From Pyrinomonadaceae bacterium (lineage in GTDB: Bacteria; Acidobacteriota; Blastocatellia; Pyrinomonadales; Pyrinomonadaceae): a stretch of 64,000 nucleotides of DNA. Below the pieces are notes generated by a model. That model ran no database searches. It worked only from the letters and a program-made list of their open reading frames with translations, and was not told where the DNA came from. The stretch is taken from assembly GCA_035645715.1 (NCBI GenBank), contig DASQMB010000056.1:18551-82550 (forward strand), given 5' to 3'. Each line of letters opens with the position of its first letter. The stretch's first letter is position 1. Position numbers and translations under genes: made by a program. This document shows, piece by piece, positions 29,610-36,865 of the stretch.

Positions 29610-30470
29610 TTGCGCGGGTCGAGGCTGATAGGGTGGCTGTTGGGCGCGTGCCTGCTGTTGCAGGTGGCGTGCGGCGGCTGGCCGAGCTCGGAAGGCCCGC
29701 TCGGACTGGGCGGCGGCGCGGCCGCACGCCTCGCGCCGCGCTTTAACCTCTTCACGCCCGAGCAGGACGTGGAACTGGGCCGGATGACGGCGCGCGAGTA
29801 CGCGGGCCAGTTGCCACTCGTCGAGGACGAGCGCGTCGTCTCTTACGTCCAGCGCCTCGGCGAGCGACTGGCGGCGCGGGCCCCCGGCTACGGGTTCGAG
29901 TACAGGTTCGCGGTGGTGGCCTCGCCCGACGTGAACGCCTTCGCCCTGCCGGGCGGCTTCGTCTTCGTCAACGCGGGCGCGGTGCTCGCGGCCGAGAGCG
30001 AGGGCGAGCTGGCCGGGGTGCTGGCGCACGAGATCGCGCACGTCGCCCTGCGCCACGGGACCAACCAGGCGTCCAAAGCCTACCTTGCGAAGACCGGGCT
30101 CAACTTCATCCAGGCGGTGACGGGCGGCGAAGAGACGCGCCTGGGCAAATTCGTCGGCTCGCTCGGCAGCGCCGGCGCCGAGCTGATCTTCCTGCGCTTC
30201 AGCCGCGCCTCCGAGTCGGAGGCCGACCTCGAAGGCGCCCGCCTGATGGCCTCGGCCGGGTACGAGCCGCGCGAGATGGCGAGCTTCTTCTCGCGCCTCG
30301 GGGAACGCAGCGTCGAACGCCCGCACGAGCTACTGAGCGACCACCCGCATCCGCACGAGCGCGTCGCCGCCATCGAGCGCCACGCCCGGTCGCTCGGCGT
30401 GACCTCGCACGAGCCTTCGGACGCCGAGTTTCGGAAGATGAAAGCGCGGCTCTCCGCGCGCCTCAGGTAG
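29610..30470 (+). CDS. M48-family zinc metallopeptidase, probable lipoprotein
   Basis: It carries the HExxH motif HEIAHVALRH and the N-terminus LLGACLLLQVACGG, which looks like a lipobox. The TTG start is preceded by GGAGG. Confidence 0.88.
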   Translation: MRGSRLIGWLLGACLLLQVACGGWPSSEGPLGLGGGAAARLAPRFNLFTPEQDVELGRMTAREYAGQLPLVEDERVVSYVQRLGERLAARAPGYGFEYRFAVVASPDVNAFALPGGFVFVNAGAVLAAESEGELAGVLAHEIAHVALRHGTNQASKAYLAKTGLNFIQAVTGGEETRLGKFVGSLGSAGAELIFLRFSRASESEADLEGARLMASAGYEPREMASFFSRLGERSVERPHELLSDHPHPHERVAAIERHARSLGVTSHEPSDAEFRKMKARLSARLR

Positions 30471-30518
30471 AGGTCCGGCGCGGCCGGGTCGGGGCCGAGC
30501 CCTCACGAAAGCTTAAAC

Positions 30519-33500
30519 TCAGGTGATGAGGTCGAAGTCGCCGTCGAGGACGCGGTCGAGGCGCCCCGTGCGCCAGCCGCGCACGGAGTCGCGGACGAGC
30601 GGCGAGGGCTCCTCGCGGTAGCGGCGGACGATCTGCGCCGTTGCCTCGTCGGTTGCCATCGCCGCTTCGGCCTGACGCCTTAGCGCCTCGGGACCGTGGC
30701 CGGCGGGCTCGTCCGGCTGGCCGACGACGCGGACGCGCGCCCGCGCACGGCTGAAGGAAGACTTCTCGCCCTGCGGCGATTCGAGGACGTGCAGGCCGCC
30801 CTCGGCCTTGAGGATCGTGTAGGCGGCGTAGCCCGAGACGGCGAGCAGCGCGCGGTAGCCCCCGCCCGCGCCGTCGCCCTGCTCCGGCTCGCCCCCTCGT
30901 TCTTCGAGGACGGCCAGCCTCATCCGCCGCTTCTCGGCCCAGCGGCGGTACATGCCCGCCAGGGCTCGCGCGAAGCGCGAGCCGGCCGCGCGGTCGTCGC
31001 CCGGTTCGTCGGAGGCTGCGACGAGCAGGAAGGCGTCGCGCGGCTCGCCGGCTTCGAGCCCGCGGCGCGCCTCGCCGAGCAGGTAGAGCTGTTGGGCGAG
31101 GCGCGCGACGAGGTCCTGCGGCAACCTGCGCGGCCCTTCATGCGAGCCGGCACGGCCGAGGCGCGAAAGCAGCGAGCCGGCCGTGTCGAGGCCCGCCTCG
31201 ATGCGGTCCATGTACTCGATCAGGCCGAGCACGGAGAAGCGCGCCGCCGAGTTCCAGAAGTGGGCCGACTGCGTCTGCCGCAGCGACTCCTCCTTACGAC
31301 CGCGCCAATCGCCCGACTCGACCAACACCGCCAGCTCCTCGTAGATGTCGCGCAGCAGTTCCAGCTCGGCGGCCGTGCCCCTCGCGTCGAGCGCGATTCC
31401 TTCAACCCTCAACTCCTCGGGGGCCGCGGCCCTGGCGGCCTCCTGCCCGGCGGACTCGGCGTGGGCAGACGCGGACTCGGCCGCCGTCTCCGGGTCGGGC
31501 GCGTCCGGGTCCACGAACTCCACGTCGAGCGACTCCTGACCGGCCGACGAGCGGACGAAGAGGAACTGGTCGCCCTCCGGGTACTGGTGGTTGACGATGG
31601 CGATGGCGAGCGGCGCGAGCAGGTAACGCTCGACGGCGCGCTTGAGGGGCCGCGCGCCGAGGTCGGCCGTGAAGCCCTTCTCCAGCAGGAACTCGATGGC
31701 CGACTCGTCCCACTCGACGGCCCACTGGCGCGTGCGCAGTCCGCGCCGGTTGAGCACGTCGTGGAGCTCCTTGCGCAGCAGGTCGCGCATCACTGCGCGC
31801 CCGAGCGGGCGGAAGACGACGACGCGGTCGATGCGGTTGACGAACTCGCGGCGGAAGGCGCGCCCCACCGCGCGCTCGACCGAGGCCGAGGCGAACTGCG
31901 CCTGCTCCTGCGAGAAGCCGATGGAGGCCCCGTGCGGGAGCGTCGCCCCGAGGTTCGAGGTCATGATGATGACCGAGTGGCGGAAGTCTGCGGTGTTGCC
32001 GCGCCGGTCGGTCAGGCGCCCGTCGTCGAAGACCTGTAGGAAGAGGTCCCAGACCTGCGGGTGCGCCTTCTCGAACTCGTCGAGGAGGACGACCGAGAAG
32101 GGCTGCTTACGAATCTGGTTGACGAGGGCCGTGCTGCTGCTCGTCTCCGAGGCTTCGCCGAGGATGCGGTCGAGCGAGTCGGGCGTCTGGAACTCGCTCA
32201 TGTCGAGGCGGATCATGCGGTCGGGCGAGCCGAAGAGGAACTCTGCGAGCGTCTTGGCGATCTCGGTCTTGCCCGTCCCCGTCGGGCCGACGAAGAGGAA
32301 GACGCCCTGCGGGCGGGTCGGGTCCGTCACGCCCGCCTTGACCATCGCCACGCGCTCGACCAGGCACTCGACGGCCTCCGGCTGGCCCAGCACGCGCCGC
32401 TCGAAGAAGGCGCGCAAGGCGGAGAGGTCGAGCCCCTCGCGCTCGTCGAGAATCTGGCGCGGCAGGCCGGTCATCTGCGAGAGCGTGACGAGCAGGTCGT
32501 CGAGCGTGAGCTGCCGCTGCGTGTAGGAAGCCTCGTCTTCGGCGAGCTGGCGGCGGCGCGCCGCGTCGAGGAAGAAGAGGAGATTGCCGGGCGCGGCCTT
32601 GTCGGCGAGGTACTGCTGTGCGAGCTGGAACGCCTCGCGCAACGTCTCGTCGGGGACGCGCCGCATGTCCGCGCCCGGCAGCGGCAGGCCGAGCGCGAAC
32701 CGCTCGGACCAGCGGCGCCCGAGTGCCATCGTCTCCTCGTCGCCGAGCGGCGAGAGCAGGCAGGTCTGCATCGCCGTGCGCAGCTTCGGGCGCATCCGCA
32801 CCAACTGCTCGAAGGGCGCGGGCTCGATCTCGCCGACCACCTTCAGCTTGCCGCTCTCGATCTCGGGCAGCATCATGTCGAGCACGCCGGTCGGGTTCTG
32901 GCTGTGGCGGCCGGCCCAGAGCATCTCGTGGAAGTTGGGCACGACCCAGAGCACGCGCCGGTCGCCCACCTCTCGGACGAGCGAGTGGAGCCGCCCTTCG
33001 ATCATGCCGATGTACTGCTGGCCCGATATCAGGTCGGCGGCGCCGGCCTCGAAGACGAGCCAGCCGTCGGCGCGCAGCCGGTCGGCGGCGGCCCGCAGCA
33101 CCGCCGTCTTGCCCGTGCCCGAGTCGCCGACGAGCAGGACGCTGCGCGGCGGGTCGTTCCGGAGCGCCGACTCGATCTCCGAGACGCGCGCCTCGACGGT
33201 CGGCGTCGTGAAGACCTCGCCGCCCGCGCCGGCCTCCCAGACGCGCCCGAAGGATTTCAGAAACTCCATCGTCTCACGCTGCTTCACCCAAACGGCCAGG
33301 CCCTCGGCCAGTCCGGCCGGAAGCACGTCCGACAAATCACCCATGAGCAGCCCGACCTCGGCCACCTGTGCCGTGCCCAGGCGCCCGCGCTCGCAGGCCG
33401 CGAGCAGGTCGTCGAGCGTCAACGCCTCGCCGGCTTCGAGCCGGCCCGCGACGAACTCTCGCAACGAGCTGAGCGGCACGAACTCTCGCCAGGAGGAGTC

Positions 33501-34229
33501 GAGGCTCGCCAGGAGCCCCGCGAGCACCGGCCGCCGCGCGTGCGCGCCGAGCGCCCTCAGCGCGTAGAAGCGTTGCCAGGGCCAGCAGTCGTTGACGAGG
33601 GGCAGGAGGCGCTCGGCCGTCTCGCCGGACGAATCGGGCGTGCGCCGGGCGAGGGCTTCGAGCGCCATGCATGCCAGGACGGCGGGGGTGGTGAAGGTGT
33701 GCGCGATCATCTCGACGGTCGTCGCGCCCCCGTCGCGCAGCAGCTCGACGCCGCGGTTGAACTCTTCGCTCTCAAGCAACTCGCGCGGGTGCGCCGTGCG
33801 GTTGAAGAATTCATCCAAACCCCAGGCGAGCGCCTGGGGGGCGTCGCCGGCTGCCTCCGCCTTCTCAGTCGCTTCCGCCCACTCCGTCGCCTCGACCTCC
33901 CGCGCCGTCTCCGCGCCCCAGGCAGTTCCTCCCGTCTGTGTCCATTCCGCCGACGCCGCTTCGCCCGAATCGCTCACCAGCCGCAGGGCAGGCACCGCCT
34001 CTTCGTTCAGACGAGCCGGACCCGCCGCGCCCCCGTCAACCCCCGACTCATCAACCGCCGCCCGCCTCTTCTCTTCGCCGGTCCTCACTTTTTCCAGCTC
34101 GGCATGGAGCCGGGCCGACTCCCTCTCGGCCTCGGCCCGCCGCTCGTCGGCCGCGCGCAGCCGCCCCAGCGCTAGCCAGAGCGCGCCGGCGCACAGCAGG
34201 CACAGGATGAGGAGTCCGAGTTCGAGCAT
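30519..34229 (-). CDS. Membrane-anchored ClpA/ClpB-type double AAA+ ATPase with C-terminal release-factor-like (RF2-like, GGQ-less) domain
   Basis: The ORF is 1236 aa. It starts with a TM helix (MLELGLLILCLLCAGALWLALG) and a coiled coil. D1 has Walker A GDSGTGKT but a degenerate Walker B (LWVVPNFHEM). D2 is canonical (GPTGTGKT, VVLLDEFEKAHP, IIMTSNLG, GARPLKRAV). From about aa 940 to 1236 it resembles RF2 domains 1, 2 and 4. Confidence 0.92.
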   Translation of the reverse strand: MLELGLLILCLLCAGALWLALGRLRAADERRAEAERESARLHAELEKVRTGEEKRRAAVDESGVDGGAAGPARLNEEAVPALRLVSDSGEAASAEWTQTGGTAWGAETAREVEATEWAEATEKAEAAGDAPQALAWGLDEFFNRTAHPRELLESEEFNRGVELLRDGGATTVEMIAHTFTTPAVLACMALEALARRTPDSSGETAERLLPLVNDCWPWQRFYALRALGAHARRPVLAGLLASLDSSWREFVPLSSLREFVAGRLEAGEALTLDDLLAACERGRLGTAQVAEVGLLMGDLSDVLPAGLAEGLAVWVKQRETMEFLKSFGRVWEAGAGGEVFTTPTVEARVSEIESALRNDPPRSVLLVGDSGTGKTAVLRAAADRLRADGWLVFEAGAADLISGQQYIGMIEGRLHSLVREVGDRRVLWVVPNFHEMLWAGRHSQNPTGVLDMMLPEIESGKLKVVGEIEPAPFEQLVRMRPKLRTAMQTCLLSPLGDEETMALGRRWSERFALGLPLPGADMRRVPDETLREAFQLAQQYLADKAAPGNLLFFLDAARRRQLAEDEASYTQRQLTLDDLLVTLSQMTGLPRQILDEREGLDLSALRAFFERRVLGQPEAVECLVERVAMVKAGVTDPTRPQGVFLFVGPTGTGKTEIAKTLAEFLFGSPDRMIRLDMSEFQTPDSLDRILGEASETSSSTALVNQIRKQPFSVVLLDEFEKAHPQVWDLFLQVFDDGRLTDRRGNTADFRHSVIIMTSNLGATLPHGASIGFSQEQAQFASASVERAVGRAFRREFVNRIDRVVVFRPLGRAVMRDLLRKELHDVLNRRGLRTRQWAVEWDESAIEFLLEKGFTADLGARPLKRAVERYLLAPLAIAIVNHQYPEGDQFLFVRSSAGQESLDVEFVDPDAPDPETAAESASAHAESAGQEAARAAAPEELRVEGIALDARGTAAELELLRDIYEELAVLVESGDWRGRKEESLRQTQSAHFWNSAARFSVLGLIEYMDRIEAGLDTAGSLLSRLGRAGSHEGPRRLPQDLVARLAQQLYLLGEARRGLEAGEPRDAFLLVAASDEPGDDRAAGSRFARALAGMYRRWAEKRRMRLAVLEERGGEPEQGDGAGGGYRALLAVSGYAAYTILKAEGGLHVLESPQGEKSSFSRARARVRVVGQPDEPAGHGPEALRRQAEAAMATDEATAQIVRRYREEPSPLVRDSVRGWRTGRLDRVLDGDFDLIT

Positions 34230-34344: not shown

Positions 34345-34390
34345 CAAAAAGAGGCCGCGCCGCCGGCCCACGAGGGGCGGCGGCGCGGCC
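34345..34390 (-). terminator. Strong intrinsic terminator (minus strand)
   Basis: A 12-bp perfect GC stem (ggccgcgccgcc / ggcggcgcggcc) plus inner pairs. On the minus strand it is followed by CUCUUUUUG. Confidence 0.8.
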
Positions 34391-34873
34391 TGTTCCCGTT
34401 GAAACGCCGAAGCGCGTCATGGGATGGCGGCTGCGCTGCATGTACACGCAAGCGCGGCCATTTTTATATCCCGAAGCGCGGGCCAGCGGTCGGCCTTGCC
34501 TCCGGTCGGCTCGGACTTTCATCGGCTTGCGCCTCTTCGAGTCCCCGCCGCCCTCACGGGCGCGGTGCCGTTTGGTTTTTGTTCTGGTGGCTGTCCTCCA
34601 CCGCCGGTCTACGTTCCGGCGAAACGAGGTCCGACCGAGGTCGGACGACTGACTGCCCCGAAGTTGATCACTCCTCAGGGCGCGAGCGCGTTTTTATCCG
34701 CGTCGCCCGGAGAGCCTGCCGACTCTCCTCCAGCAAGCCTTTCGGCTTCGGCCCGGGCGTCATTGGCGACAACTTAAATCCGCTGCTGTTGCCGTCCTCG
34801 GGCGTCGGGCATTTCTGCCCTCGACCCGCCGATCCCGCGCCGGTCACGGCCCCCTTGAGAACCGCGACGGGAT
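34345..34873 (-). ncRNA. Candidate ~530-nt structured non-coding transcript (family not identified)
   Basis: The unit is bounded by a consensus promoter and the terminator above. It contains no convincing ORF. It has many short perfect hairpins, several with GNRA loops (34807..34820 GAAA, 34736..34747 GAAA, 34549..34562 GUGA), plus 34709..34728 and 34629..34646. Confidence 0.45.
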
Positions 34874-34877
34874 GCGG

Positions 34878-34906
34878 ACTATACGCACCGCGCCACACCC
34901 TGTCAA
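34878..34906 (-). promoter_or_regulatory. Consensus sigma70-type promoter on the minus strand
   Basis: On the minus strand it reads TTGACA (34906..34901), a 17-nt spacer, then TATAGT (34883..34878). An A7 run lies just upstream. Confidence 0.6.
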
Positions 34907-34991: not shown

Positions 34992-36731
34992 TCAGCGGCC
35001 GTGGAGCGGAAGGCGGAACGCGGCCATCTCTTCGCCGTTGCGGACCAGCAGCACGTCGCCGACCAGGACGGGGTGGTTCCAGGTCTTCCCCCTGATGGCC
35101 GAAAACCGCGCCAGTTCCTCGAAGCGTTCGGGGGCCGCGCCGGCCAGCGCCAGCTCGCCCTGCTCAGACACCACCAGCAACACGTCCTGTTCGGGCAGCA
35201 GGATGAGCTGGCCGGAGCCGTAGTTTCCGCCCTCCCACCTGCGCCCGCCGTCCGCGAGGTCGATGCAGGCGAGCGTGCCGTTGTCGAACCCGTAGGCGTG
35301 GCCGCGGTGCACGACGAAGTCGTTGAAGTAGGGCTTCAGCCCGTCGGTTGTCCAGCGCTCTTCGACCTTCCATCCGTCGCCGGCGTGCGCGACCGCGATG
35401 CGGTGCAGGTCGGCCCCCTCGCCGTCGCTCACCAGCAGGTCTCCGTCCGCGGTCAGGGCCGGCTGAACGATGCGGGTGTTCTGCGACAGTGGGTACTGCC
35501 AGAGCAGCCTTCCGTCCTCCGGCGCGACGCTGACCACGCCGGGGCCGCTCAGCAGCACGATCTGCGTGATTCCGTCAATCGTCGCTAAGTGGGGTGAGCT
35601 GTAACCGCTCCCGCCCTTCGGGCCGAACCAGCGTTGCTCGCCGGTGGCCGCGTCGTAGGCGGCGAGCGTGCCGGCGGTGGCGACGACGACCGCGTCGCCG
35701 ATCAACAGCGGCGAGCCGGCGAAGCCCCAGCCCGGAACCTTGGTCTGCGTGTCGGCGGCCGCGTTGCGCGACCAGACGACCGAGCCGTCGCCGGCATCGA
35801 GCGCGTTCAGGATGCCGGTCGCGCCGAGCGTGTAGACACGGCCGCCGCCGAGAGTCGGGGTCCCGCGCGGTCCGGCCCCGGCGTTCGACTCCCAGAACCT
35901 CGCCTCGTCGCGGTGGACCCAGACCGGCTGGCCCGTGGACGCGTTGTAGCAGGCGACGACCTCGTGCGGGCCGCGCTGCTCTTGCGTGTAGAGGCGGTCG
36001 CCGCCGACCGCGAAGGACGACCAGCCCGGCCCGACGGGGCGGCGCCACAACTCGACCGGCGGCGAAGTTTTCCAGTCGGTTGCGATCCGCACACCGCGGA
36101 CGACGCCGTCGCGCTCGGGGCCGCGAAAGCCGGGCCACGCCGCCCCGGCCTCCGCCGCCGGGGCCGACGTGCCGGGTGCCGGTTCGTCGCCGGCGCGGGC
36201 CAGCAGTCGCTGCTCGGGCGTCTGCGACCAGCGCCAGGCGAAGTCCGAATCGGCATCGCCGGTGATGCCGCCCGTCCGCAAAAGCGTGAAGGCGCCGCAG
36301 GCGATCAGGACGGCGGCGGCCAGGACCGCGCGCCGTCGCCCGTCGGAAAGCCGGCGGCCGACCGCCGCCCCGGCGGCGAGCGCCATGCTCACGAACACGA
36401 GGCCGTAGATGGGGAACATCATCCCCATCATGCCCCCCGCGATTGATTCGTGGAGGAGCGGCCGGGCCGCGACCATCGCGGCGACCAAAAGGGCGACGAT
36501 CCCCCACCGCTCGGCGCGCGGAGCGCGGCTGAAGAAGGCCCACCAGACGACGATCCCCAGCCCGCCAATCACCCCGGCCAGCAGGCCGAAGATGAGGGCT
36601 CCGGGCGCGACGAGTGGGACGACGAACCAGCCGAGCAGTTGCAGAGTGACGAAGAGGAGGCCGGGCCACAGCCGGAGCGGTTTCCGAATGGGGGCGCGGT
36701 CTGAGTGTTTGTCTGTGTGGGGGAGGGCCAT
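34992..36731 (-). CDS. Membrane-anchored PQQ-like (BamB-type) beta-propeller repeat protein
   Basis: About four N-terminal TM helices are followed by repeated propeller blades (GGRVYTLGATGILNALDAGDGSVVWS, TLAAYDAATGEQRWF, GTLACIDLADGGRRWE). The start is taken at MALPHTD (36731). Confidence 0.85.
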   Translation of the reverse strand: MALPHTDKHSDRAPIRKPLRLWPGLLFVTLQLLGWFVVPLVAPGALIFGLLAGVIGGLGIVVWWAFFSRAPRAERWGIVALLVAAMVAARPLLHESIAGGMMGMMFPIYGLVFVSMALAAGAAVGRRLSDGRRRAVLAAAVLIACGAFTLLRTGGITGDADSDFAWRWSQTPEQRLLARAGDEPAPGTSAPAAEAGAAWPGFRGPERDGVVRGVRIATDWKTSPPVELWRRPVGPGWSSFAVGGDRLYTQEQRGPHEVVACYNASTGQPVWVHRDEARFWESNAGAGPRGTPTLGGGRVYTLGATGILNALDAGDGSVVWSRNAAADTQTKVPGWGFAGSPLLIGDAVVVATAGTLAAYDAATGEQRWFGPKGGSGYSSPHLATIDGITQIVLLSGPGVVSVAPEDGRLLWQYPLSQNTRIVQPALTADGDLLVSDGEGADLHRIAVAHAGDGWKVEERWTTDGLKPYFNDFVVHRGHAYGFDNGTLACIDLADGGRRWEGGNYGSGQLILLPEQDVLLVVSEQGELALAGAAPERFEELARFSAIRGKTWNHPVLVGDVLLVRNGEEMAAFRLPLHGR

Positions 36732-36865
36732 GTCAGACCAATACGCCGCCCGAGAGGCCGTTTGTTCCCCGGGCTCGCGGCCCGACCGCGGCCCGACCCA
36801 GCGCCGGGGCGGCGGCGGCATTTCTTACCGGAGTGACGGGCGGGCGAATCGTCTCGACTCTTCGG

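Follow-up and report, generated by a model that had tools for sequence, protein, structure and literature searches.

An uncharacterised family of ClpA/ClpC-type AAA+ proteins ending in a release factor 2-derived module without the GGQ domain

The protein considered here is encoded in a 64,000-nucleotide stretch of DNA from a Pyrinomonadaceae bacterium (GenBank assembly GCA_035645715.1, contig DASQMB010000056.1, positions 18,551 to 82,550 of the forward strand). This stretch is referred to as the window, and all positions below are numbered within it. The protein consists of a tandem AAA+ motor whose C-terminal end is fused to a module derived from release factor 2 (RF2). The module is an RF2-derived scaffold that retains domains 1 and 2 and probably domain 4 of a bacterial release factor (RF), and its catalytic GGQ domain is gone. 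The protein belongs to a multi-phylum, uncharacterised family of ClpA/ClpC-type double-ring AAA+ proteins with such a GGQ-less RF2 module. What might these proteins do? The explanation that we prefer, to which we give somewhat less than an even chance, is a ribosome-directed Clp machine. In it, the tethered RF modules would imitate an A-site ligand irrespective of the codon and draw ribosomes to a ring coupled to ClpP. An initial annotation of this DNA had singled out positions 30522-31412, which correspond to residues ~940-1236 (the last ~297) of the 1236-residue protein.

30519-34229, minus strand: complete gene (1236 amino acids plus stop) for the putatively membrane-anchored, ClpA/C-like double-ring AAA+ protein with the C-terminal RF2-derived module

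The resemblance of the last ~300 amino acids to RF2, which the initial annotation had noticed in an alignment by eye, was borne out by sequence and structure comparisons. The Pfam PCRF domain (PF03462) matched residues 1084-1148 above threshold, with 32.5 bits against a gathering score of 24. The NCBIfam prfB model matched as a C-terminal fragment with 38.7 bits, which is below the prfB equivalog cutoff of 370 bits (TIGR00020), and the prfA model scored lower (21-23 bits). A phmmer search of Protein Data Bank (PDB) sequences returned RF1/RF2 matches only (E~5e-6). A family profile built from 79 relatives found E. coli RF2 residues 9-217 in the PDB with E=1.5e-15, and hhalign against E. coli RF1 and RF2 gave a probability of 97.9% (E=3.4e-13). 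RF2 is closer to the module than RF1 in both the NCBIfam scores and the PDB profile search. An AlphaFold2 (AF2) model of the last 326 amino acids had a predicted local distance difference test score (pLDDT) of 91.6 and a predicted template modelling score of 0.87, with low confidence in its first ~30 residues (pLDDT 53-65). When this model was compared with the PDB by Foldseek, the top 50 matches were all RF1/RF2 (or mtRF1/mtRF1a), the best with E=3.7e-13, and the best template modelling score (TM-score) was 0.56, to free, closed RF2 (1gqe). The Foldseek alignments were collinear and covered the entire RF length, with ~362 columns for the 362-residue RF2. Likewise, a global MAFFT alignment with E. 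coli RF1 and RF2 ran collinearly through domain 1, domain 2, a gap, and domain 4. The parts of the module and the tether in front of it are as follows.

31395-31559, minus strand: tether from D2-small to the RF-like module, residues 891-945, acidic/Ala-rich, probably disordered (low pLDDT; variable in the alignment)
31044-31394, minus strand: RF domain-1-like helical bundle, residues ~946-1062, aligned to RF2 residues ~9-120 and seen in the AF2 model
31158-31259, minus strand: conserved motif FW.S..RF.VLG..EYMDRIEAGL.TA.SLL.RL within the domain-1-like bundle
30705-31043, minus strand: RF domain-2-like alpha/beta part, residues 1063-1175, containing the PCRF match at 1084-1148
30636-30704, minus strand: 23-residue helical linker AGHGPEALRRQAEAAMATDEATA in place of the ~93-residue GGQ domain 3 and helix alpha7 (AF2, MAFFT)
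30522-30635, minus strand: RF domain-4-like beta-beta-beta-alpha block, residues 1199-1236, IVRRYRE.PSPLVRDSVRGWRTGRL.RVL.GDFDL

The first two of the three segments that had been aligned by hand with RF2 were reproduced by HMMER. The third, at the C-terminus, was collinear with RF2 in the structural and MAFFT alignments but was not significant by sequence alone. This block is provisionally assigned to RF domain 4 because of its structure and collinearity, that is, the beta-beta-beta-alpha topology of the AF2 model together with the Foldseek and MAFFT alignments. It is Arg-rich and nearly invariant across phyla, and it is the best-conserved stretch of the RF-like module, which itself ranks among the best-conserved regions of the protein when phyla are compared. 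Domain 2 keeps the structural motifs MY..WA and SG..AY..L..E.GLH. The family also has invariant motifs of its own, namely FW.S..RF.VLG, EYMDRIEAGL, PSPLVRD, and WRTG, and the last three have no counterpart in RFs. The net charge of the module is about neutral, not strongly basic. The module is homologous to RF2 (PrfB), and more distantly to RF1, in the helical bundle of domain 1 and in domain 2, and probably also in domain 4, which would complete the beta-sheet superdomain. It shares with RF2 the motifs W..P.R...LG, MY.RWAE, SG..AY..L..E.G.H, and R.Y....P...V.D....G....VL.G..D, and its inter-domain arrangement is nearest to that of free RF2. However, it differs from RF2 in lacking domain 3 with its GGQ motif (93 residues reduced to ~24) and the conserved decoding motifs, and instead of being a free factor it forms the C-terminal end of a 1236-residue AAA+ protein.

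The loss of the catalytic GGQ domain is real and not a frameshift artefact. The Pfam RF-1 domain (PF00472) had no match in the protein at E<=10. The domain-3 segment, 93 amino acids long in RF1/RF2, has a median length of 24 in the family, in agreement with the earlier observation that about 22 amino acids stand in for the GGQ segment. Because a GGQ motif might be hidden by a frameshift, it was looked for in all reading frames. None was found in any frame of 30401-31600, and it was present in none of the 79 family modules (0/79). All relatives share the same C-terminal end position. A hidden GGQ was thereby ruled out.

The elements with which RFs read stop codons have fared no better. The alpha5-tip GxGG.E, the SPF/PxT loop, R.HTS, and the switch loop are absent or unconserved, as judged from the alignment with E. 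coli RF1 and RF2 and from the variability within the family. The RF strand G.HR..R reads G-L-H-V-L-E, and its Glu is invariant in the family. The SPF tripeptide had been thought to survive as SPQ. This did not hold, because SPQ is shifted by two residues relative to SPF in the profile alignment, and relatives read TPQ, IPE, WG, and so on there. The claim that the protein keeps the A-site-binding and decoding scaffold without catalysis can therefore be upheld for the retained domains 1, 2, and 4 and for the loss of the GGQ domain, but not for the decoding elements. Since these are absent or unconserved and HR..R has become HVLE, recognition of terminating ribosomes through the stop codon, which had been part of the role first suggested, is unlikely.

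How widespread is this architecture? Among 1.84 billion, 399 representatives of 50%-identity clusters matched the RF-like profile at E<=1e-30. Complete family proteins are 1050-1290 amino acids long, and across the ~400 cluster representatives the module is always at the extreme C-terminus. At least 245 species-representative genomes carry the gene. The 80 loci retrieved from these 245 carriers all lie in metagenome-assembled genomes (MAGs), mostly of Pyrinomonadaceae; the other hosts are Blastocatellia, Terriglobia, Gemmatimonadota, Acidimicrobiia, Calditrichaceae, and Krumholzibacteriia. Metagenomic matches were additionally labelled Eisenbacteria and Caenarcaniphilales. These data bear on the suspicion that the fusion is an artefact, either a frameshift or mis-assembly that brought a clp gene and a damaged prfB together or a chance similarity to RF2 in a high-GC open reading frame (ORF). 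Such a suspicion is invited by the ~70% GC content of the window with its many spurious long ORFs, and by some long-read relatives that are split by frameshifts. However, dozens of independent assemblies, representing several phyla, carry the collinear architecture in a single frame, no GGQ is found in any frame or in any of the 79 modules, the homology statistics are strong, and all relatives have the same C-terminal end. An artefact is extremely improbable, and we regard it as refuted by the recurrence of the architecture across assemblies and the absence of GGQ throughout.

In some loci the gene is spread over 2-5 frames or adjacent ORFs (L002/L064, L050, L060, L062, L090, and L091, from long-read MAGs of the Microflora-Danica type and others). 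The splits on long-read assemblies are probably assembly frameshifts and not real splits. They give rise to database entries that look like free-standing PCRF domain proteins. Four short, PCRF-only, apparently stand-alone GGQ-less RF proteins on long contigs (P0033, P0102, P0034, and P0040) were rejected as such, since they are frameshift splits lying directly downstream of AAA+ fragments.

A short variant of 865-925 amino acids, found in at least 8 cluster representatives, keeps the degenerate D1, D2, and the RF-like module, and it has neither the membrane anchor nor the HEAT-like domain described below. Two examples are complete genes inside their contigs.

L092:2324-4987: short variant P0315, 887 amino acids
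L093:6001-8649: short variant P0289, 882 amino acids

Since the short variant lacks the anchor, the core function does not depend on a membrane location, and since it keeps D1, D2, and the RF-like module, the invariant unit is the ATPase together with the dead RF module. An N-domain split off upstream in L092 was considered and rejected, as the 180-amino-acid ORF there is unrelated to the N-domain. This natural soluble form is a convenient construct for biochemistry.

The motor was characterised by aligning 59 full-length members with E. coli ClpA and ClpB. It consists of tandem D1 and D2 AAA+ modules (Pfam AAA_2 at 4e-45 and ClpB_D2-small at 4e-13), and residues 365-879 form a single collinear match to ClpA 210-720. 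The following features were located in it.

32430-33209, minus strand: D1 AAA+ module, residues 341-600, with no M-domain after it
33105-33128, minus strand: D1 Walker A, GDSGTGKT
33003-33023, minus strand: D1 pore loop with Tyr, GQQYIGM
32925-32954, minus strand: D1 degenerate Walker B, VLWVVPNFHE
31560-32429, minus strand: D2 AAA+ module with ClpB_D2-small, residues 601-890
32265-32288, minus strand: D2 Walker A
32127-32159, minus strand: D2 pore-1 loop replacement, acidic/polar, GEASETSSSTA
32070-32093, minus strand: D2 Walker B, VVLLDEFE
31911-31925, minus strand: S-I-G-F-S loop, with [I/V]-G-F at the ClpP-docking (IGL) position of ClpA
31824-31844, minus strand: D2 Arg finger
31638-31658, minus strand: D2 sensor-2, GARPLKR

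The degenerate Walker B of D1, which had been recognised earlier, is a family trait. The motif lacks D-E in 59/59 members and mostly reads P-N-F, while the pore loop of D1 is of the ClpA/B type with Tyr or Phe in 59/59. Because Walker A is present and Walker B degenerate, D1 is predicted to bind ATP and to be dead for hydrolysis. In D2 the Walker A and B motifs, the Arg finger, and sensor-2 are all intact, so that a complete, hydrolysis-competent ATPase ring is predicted. In place of the GYVG pore-1 loop of D2, all 59 members have a variable acidic/polar loop that lacks a conserved aromatic residue. The [I/V]-G-F tripeptide is invariant (59/59). It aligns with KSIGLI of E. coli ClpA, where ClpB has a gap, and the SIGFS loop aligns with the ClpA insert of the ClpB-ClpA chimera 'BAP' (5ofo). 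This loop points to ClpP docking and proteolysis, not to disaggregation of the ClpB type. Furthermore, every family member has gaps in the M-domain columns. Because it has no M-domain and has the [I/V]GF loop, the motor is by these sequence features ClpA/ClpC-like rather than ClpB-like. The initial annotation had spoken of a canonical ClpB-like D2, and this stands for the intact ATPase motifs but not for the rest, since the GYVG loop is missing and a ClpA-type IGF loop is present. Its suggestion of ATP-driven extraction is questionable where the usual threading is meant, as D2 has no aromatic pore-1 loop.

A D1 that is predicted to be hydrolysis-dead and keeps its pore Tyr, joined to a live D2 with an acidic, non-aromatic pore loop and an IGF loop, is an unusual motor mix. 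We know of no characterised Clp/Hsp100 protein with this combination, and it should interest those who study AAA+ mechanisms.

Could the protein simply be an ordinary ClpB or ClpC chaperone with a functionally unimportant C-terminal extension? JGI and some NCBI records name it ClpC, and in the D2 region it shares 40-45% identity with ClpB and ClpC. However, the NCBIfam equivalog scores are far below the cutoffs, 319 against 1232 for ClpB (TIGR03346) and 288 against 993 for ClpA. The protein also lacks Clp_N, the M-domain, a functional D1 Walker B, and the pore-loop Tyr of D2, and the supposedly unimportant extension is among its best-conserved parts across phyla. We consider this explanation very unlikely. 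A tblastn search of D2 against plasmids matched ordinary genes of the ClpB/ClpK type and was uninformative.

The region in front of the motor comprises three parts.

34164-34226, minus strand: transmembrane anchor, residues 2-22, followed by basic residues
33858-34163, minus strand: charged helix and acidic/Ala-rich low-complexity spacer, residues 23-124
33210-33857, minus strand: all-helical HEAT/ARM-like N-domain, residues 125-340, conserved, not Clp_N

The N-terminal transmembrane helix proposed earlier was found in 182 of the 205 full-length members, starting near residue 3. It was called from a 19-residue window with a Kyte-Doolittle hydropathy of at least 1.6, and the next 12 residues contain a median of 3 Lys or Arg. 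It is predicted to be a signal-anchor, with most of the protein being cytoplasmic. The spacer is poorly conserved and variable in length, and in most loci tblastn homology begins only around query residue 120. The coiled coil that had been placed behind the transmembrane helix occurs in close relatives but is confined to them. The N-domain, which the initial annotation overlooked, is HEAT/ARM-like in its AF2 model (pLDDT 92.6, 14 helices). Foldseek found only generic alpha-solenoid (HEAT/ARM/TOG-like) matches for it, the best with E 0.14. A Pfam scan of residues 1-343 gave no match, Clp_N included, and a word-index homology search with the N-region alone returned just 2 proteins.

How might these parts work together as a ribosome-directed machine? 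In the main clade, the transmembrane helix and the ~100-residue spacer would tether a cytoplasmic hexamer to the membrane, with the HEAT-like N-domain sitting on top of D1. D1 would hold ATP without hydrolysing it and grip the substrate through its pore-loop Tyr. Each RF2-derived module would be carried on a flexible tether of ~50 residues, and the six modules, dead and codon-independent tRNA-shaped mimics of an A-site ligand, may recruit ribosomes to the ring. These ribosomes would presumably be stalled or idle, and in the anchored clade near the membrane. ATP hydrolysis by D2 might then remodel ribosome-associated clients or pass them to ClpP docked on the IGF loops. One speculative way to reconcile the missing D2 aromatic with such an activity is that the pore Tyr of D1 is moved by protomer motions driven by D2. 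A machine of this kind would be a bacterial functional counterpart of the pairs of an inactive RF and an ATPase, such as Pelota-ABCE1 or Vms1-Cdc48.

For the targeting of ribosomes speaks the retention of the full three-part RF body (domains 1, 2, and 4), which is strongly conserved, and the fusion is a conserved unit, with an RF-like module on the C-terminus of an AAA+ protein in ~400 cluster representatives. We know of no characterised homologue of a bacterial class-I RF that acts elsewhere than on the ribosome. A precedent is provided by Balon, an RF-family protein without decoding and GGQ motifs that still binds the A site independently of mRNA (PMC10901736).

Several observations weigh against the ribosome-directed machine. 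The residues through which RFs contact the codon and the decoding centre are all replaced, including the exchange of HR..R for HVLE with its invariant Glu, and the switch loop is unconserved; because of these replacements a new ligand for the module is plausible. D2, the only ring predicted to hydrolyse ATP, lacks the aromatic pore-1 residue, which is awkward for processive threading into ClpP. The A site and the exit of the nascent chain are ~100 Å apart, so that one module cannot serve both directly. All-vs-all clustering of the ORFs of 81 loci found no gene neighbours conserved across phyla, whether ribosomal, rescue, or clpP genes, and only lineage-level synteny. Finally, the IGF loop, through which ClpP coupling is proposed, is a sequence signature only.

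A second explanation ranks after the A-site-mimic machine and before a hibernation tether. The RF scaffold may have been exapted to bind substrates or adaptors, or to serve autoregulation or oligomerisation, in a specialised membrane-associated unfoldase that partners with ClpP, with no ribosome contact. This is a possible explanation, with a chance well short of even. It would account for the loss or chemical inversion of all decoding-centre contacts (HR..R to HVLE), for the invariant EYMDRIEAGL, PSPLVRD, and WRTG motifs without RF counterpart, and for the near-neutral charge of the module. The absence of conserved translation-related neighbours fits as well, as do the BepA-like and BamB-like envelope-biogenesis neighbours in Pyrinomonadaceae. 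However, the full tRNA-shaped body is kept, domain 1 included, in an RF2-like inter-domain arrangement (TM-score 0.56 to free RF2). We know of no precedent for a non-ribosomal role of the bacterial RF codon-recognition superdomain. Balon, furthermore, demonstrates that A-site binding can survive the loss of decoding motifs (PMC10901736).

The same precedent is the starting point of a third explanation, as Balon is an A-site hibernation factor that lacks decoding and GGQ motifs (PMC10901736). The dead RF module might plug idle A sites independently of mRNA and park ribosomes at a membrane ring during starvation, and D2 ATP hydrolysis would free them on recovery, with ClpP docking as an incidental or regulatory feature. 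A hexamer with six tethered modules would gain avidity, a D2 without a threading pore loop suits a clamp-and-release ATPase better than an unfoldase, and the hosts, judged by the titles of their MAGs, are oligotrophic soil lineages. Yet the invariant IGF loop and the pore Tyr of D1 favour engagement of polypeptides and coupling to ClpP, a soluble variant exists without the anchor, and no association with HPF, RaiA, or a stress operon was seen in the gene context. This hibernation tether appears unlikely.

Membership in each of the known groups, RF2, ClpB, ClpA/ClpC, and aeRF1/Balon, fails on at least one defining feature. The family resembles ClpA/ClpC in its tandem D1-D2 arrangement, the missing M-domain, the D2-small domain, and the [I/V]GF at the position of the IGL loop. 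It differs from them in having a transmembrane anchor and a HEAT-like N-domain instead of Clp_N, a degenerate D1 Walker B, an acidic/polar loop in place of GYVG in D2, and the added C-terminal RF-like module. ClpB/Hsp104 proteins supply the best-scoring solved relatives of its D2 (T. thermophilus ClpB, 1qvr, E=1e-78), and the family matches Pfam AAA_2 and ClpB_D2-small, but it has no coiled-coil M-domain, which is the docking site of ClpB for Hsp70, and it has a ClpP-type loop that ClpB lacks. Its D2 also lacks the pore Tyr, and its D1 ATPase is predicted to be dead. The likeness to FtsH lies in an N-terminally membrane-anchored, cytoplasmic AAA+ ring linked to proteolysis. FtsH has a single AAA module of the classic clade, a fused M41 protease, and two transmembrane helices, and the homology is limited to the AAA+ core.

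Among proteins derived from RFs, PrfH, ArfB/YaeJ, and ICT1 are like the family module in having shed part of the RF body. PrfH and ArfB keep the GGQ hydrolase domain; PrfH loses domain 1 and ArfB the decoding domain. All characterised bacterial RF paralogues known to us (RF1, RF2, PrfH, and ArfB/ICT1) keep this hydrolase. PrfH, ArfB/YaeJ, and ICT1 reportedly act outside normal termination (for PrfH: 10.1101/2025.01.09.632186; PMC13166195). The truncation in the AAA+ family is the converse of those in PrfH, ArfB/YaeJ, and ICT1, since the body is kept and the GGQ domain lost, and none of these proteins is fused to an ATPase.

Pelota/Dom34-ABCE1 and Vms1-Cdc48 are pairs of an inactive or repurposed RF-family protein and an ATPase (PMC6514570). 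Together with Balon, Pelota and Vms1 are functional analogues in that they bind in the A site with no need to recognise a stop codon. However, they have the unrelated archaeo-eukaryotic aeRF1 fold, which is not homologous, and are polypeptides separate from their ATPases. Their central domain reaches the peptidyl-transferase centre, whereas the family has deleted that part. No aeRF1 fold was among the top 50 Foldseek matches of the RF-like module, all of which were bacterial RF1/RF2 or mitochondrial mtRF1.

The family is the converse case, in which the tRNA-shaped body survives without the catalytic domain as part of an ATPase that bears a protease-docking signature and, in most members, a membrane anchor. 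Should the module still be directed at ribosomes, bacteria would possess a pathway of an inactive RF plus an ATPase built on the bacterial RF fold, comparable to Pelota-ABCE1 and Vms1-Cdc48, and this would be the first known use of a bacterial RF decoding body without its hydrolase domain. It is conceivable, but rather unlikely, that the family represents a new type of bacterial ribosome-directed AAA+ machine, in which dead A-site mimics and a ClpP-coupled ring extract, degrade, or release clients or the ribosome. A module with no ribosomal target would be the first case known to us of an RF decoding superdomain exapted for another ligand. The hosts belong to abundant and poorly studied soil phyla, such as Acidobacteriota and Gemmatimonadota. 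The earlier statement that no system with this architecture has been described agrees with the full-text literature searched, in which no description of an AAA+-RF fusion was found, the RF-evolution survey of Burroughs and Aravind (PMC6514570) included.

The architecture is visible in database domain annotations as PF03462 together with PF07724 and PF10431. The identical protein is deposited as 'AAA family ATPase [Pyrinomonadaceae bacterium]', and family members appear under the names 'PCRF domain-containing protein', 'AAA family ATPase', and 'ClpC'. A JGI soil-type metagenome contig matches the window. The GC content of the window is about 70%, and several long ORFs lie opposite or overlap the AAA+ gene, among them 32061-34175 and 30696-32039 on the plus strand, with up to 704 amino acids. 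These overlapping ORFs are spurious, as is typical of ~72% GC DNA, and are not genes. No CIRCE heat-shock operator was found in the 64-kb window.

Within Pyrinomonadaceae the gene is syntenic and vertically conserved. Two genes flank it in the window.

29610-30470, plus strand: BepA-like M48 metalloprotease with a lipoprotein-type signal, LLLQVAC
34992-36821, minus strand: BamB-like PQQ beta-propeller

In 36 Pyrinomonadaceae loci the M48 gene and the AAA+ gene converge, and neither the M48 nor the BamB-like gene appears to be co-transcribed with the AAA+ gene. The neighbourhood is rich in envelope-biogenesis and protease genes, with M16, S8, and a PDZ protein within 10 kb, and it has no link to the family outside the lineage. 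Membership in an anti-phage defence system was considered and rejected. The PADLOC defence models gave no match to the RF-like module or the N-domain and a generic AAA+ similarity to D2, in other words nothing specific.

A gap of 762 nucleotides with a promoter and a terminator lies upstream of the AAA+-RF gene and contains a candidate structured noncoding RNA.

34345-34906, minus strand: candidate structured noncoding RNA, ~525 nucleotides, with its own promoter and terminator
34906-34878, minus strand: sigma70-type promoter after an A-tract, TTGACA-17-TATAGT, 11/12 match
~34394-34345, minus strand: strong GC-rich intrinsic terminator

The ~525-nucleotide segment shows no codon periodicity, matches no Rfam 15 family, and is neither a tRNA nor a tmRNA. 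It is 70-79% identical in 17 related Pyrinomonadaceae loci, where it is always on the same strand as the AAA+-RF gene and 0.1-3 kb upstream of it. The tie between the two is lineage-level synteny only. RNAalifold predicted 151 pairs, of which 47 have compensatory double changes. The candidate has several hairpins capped by UUCG or GAAA and invariant single-stranded stretches, for example GCGGAUAAAAACGCG and CCAGAACAAAAACC, and it appears to be a novel structured RNA belonging to one sub-clade of Pyrinomonadaceae.

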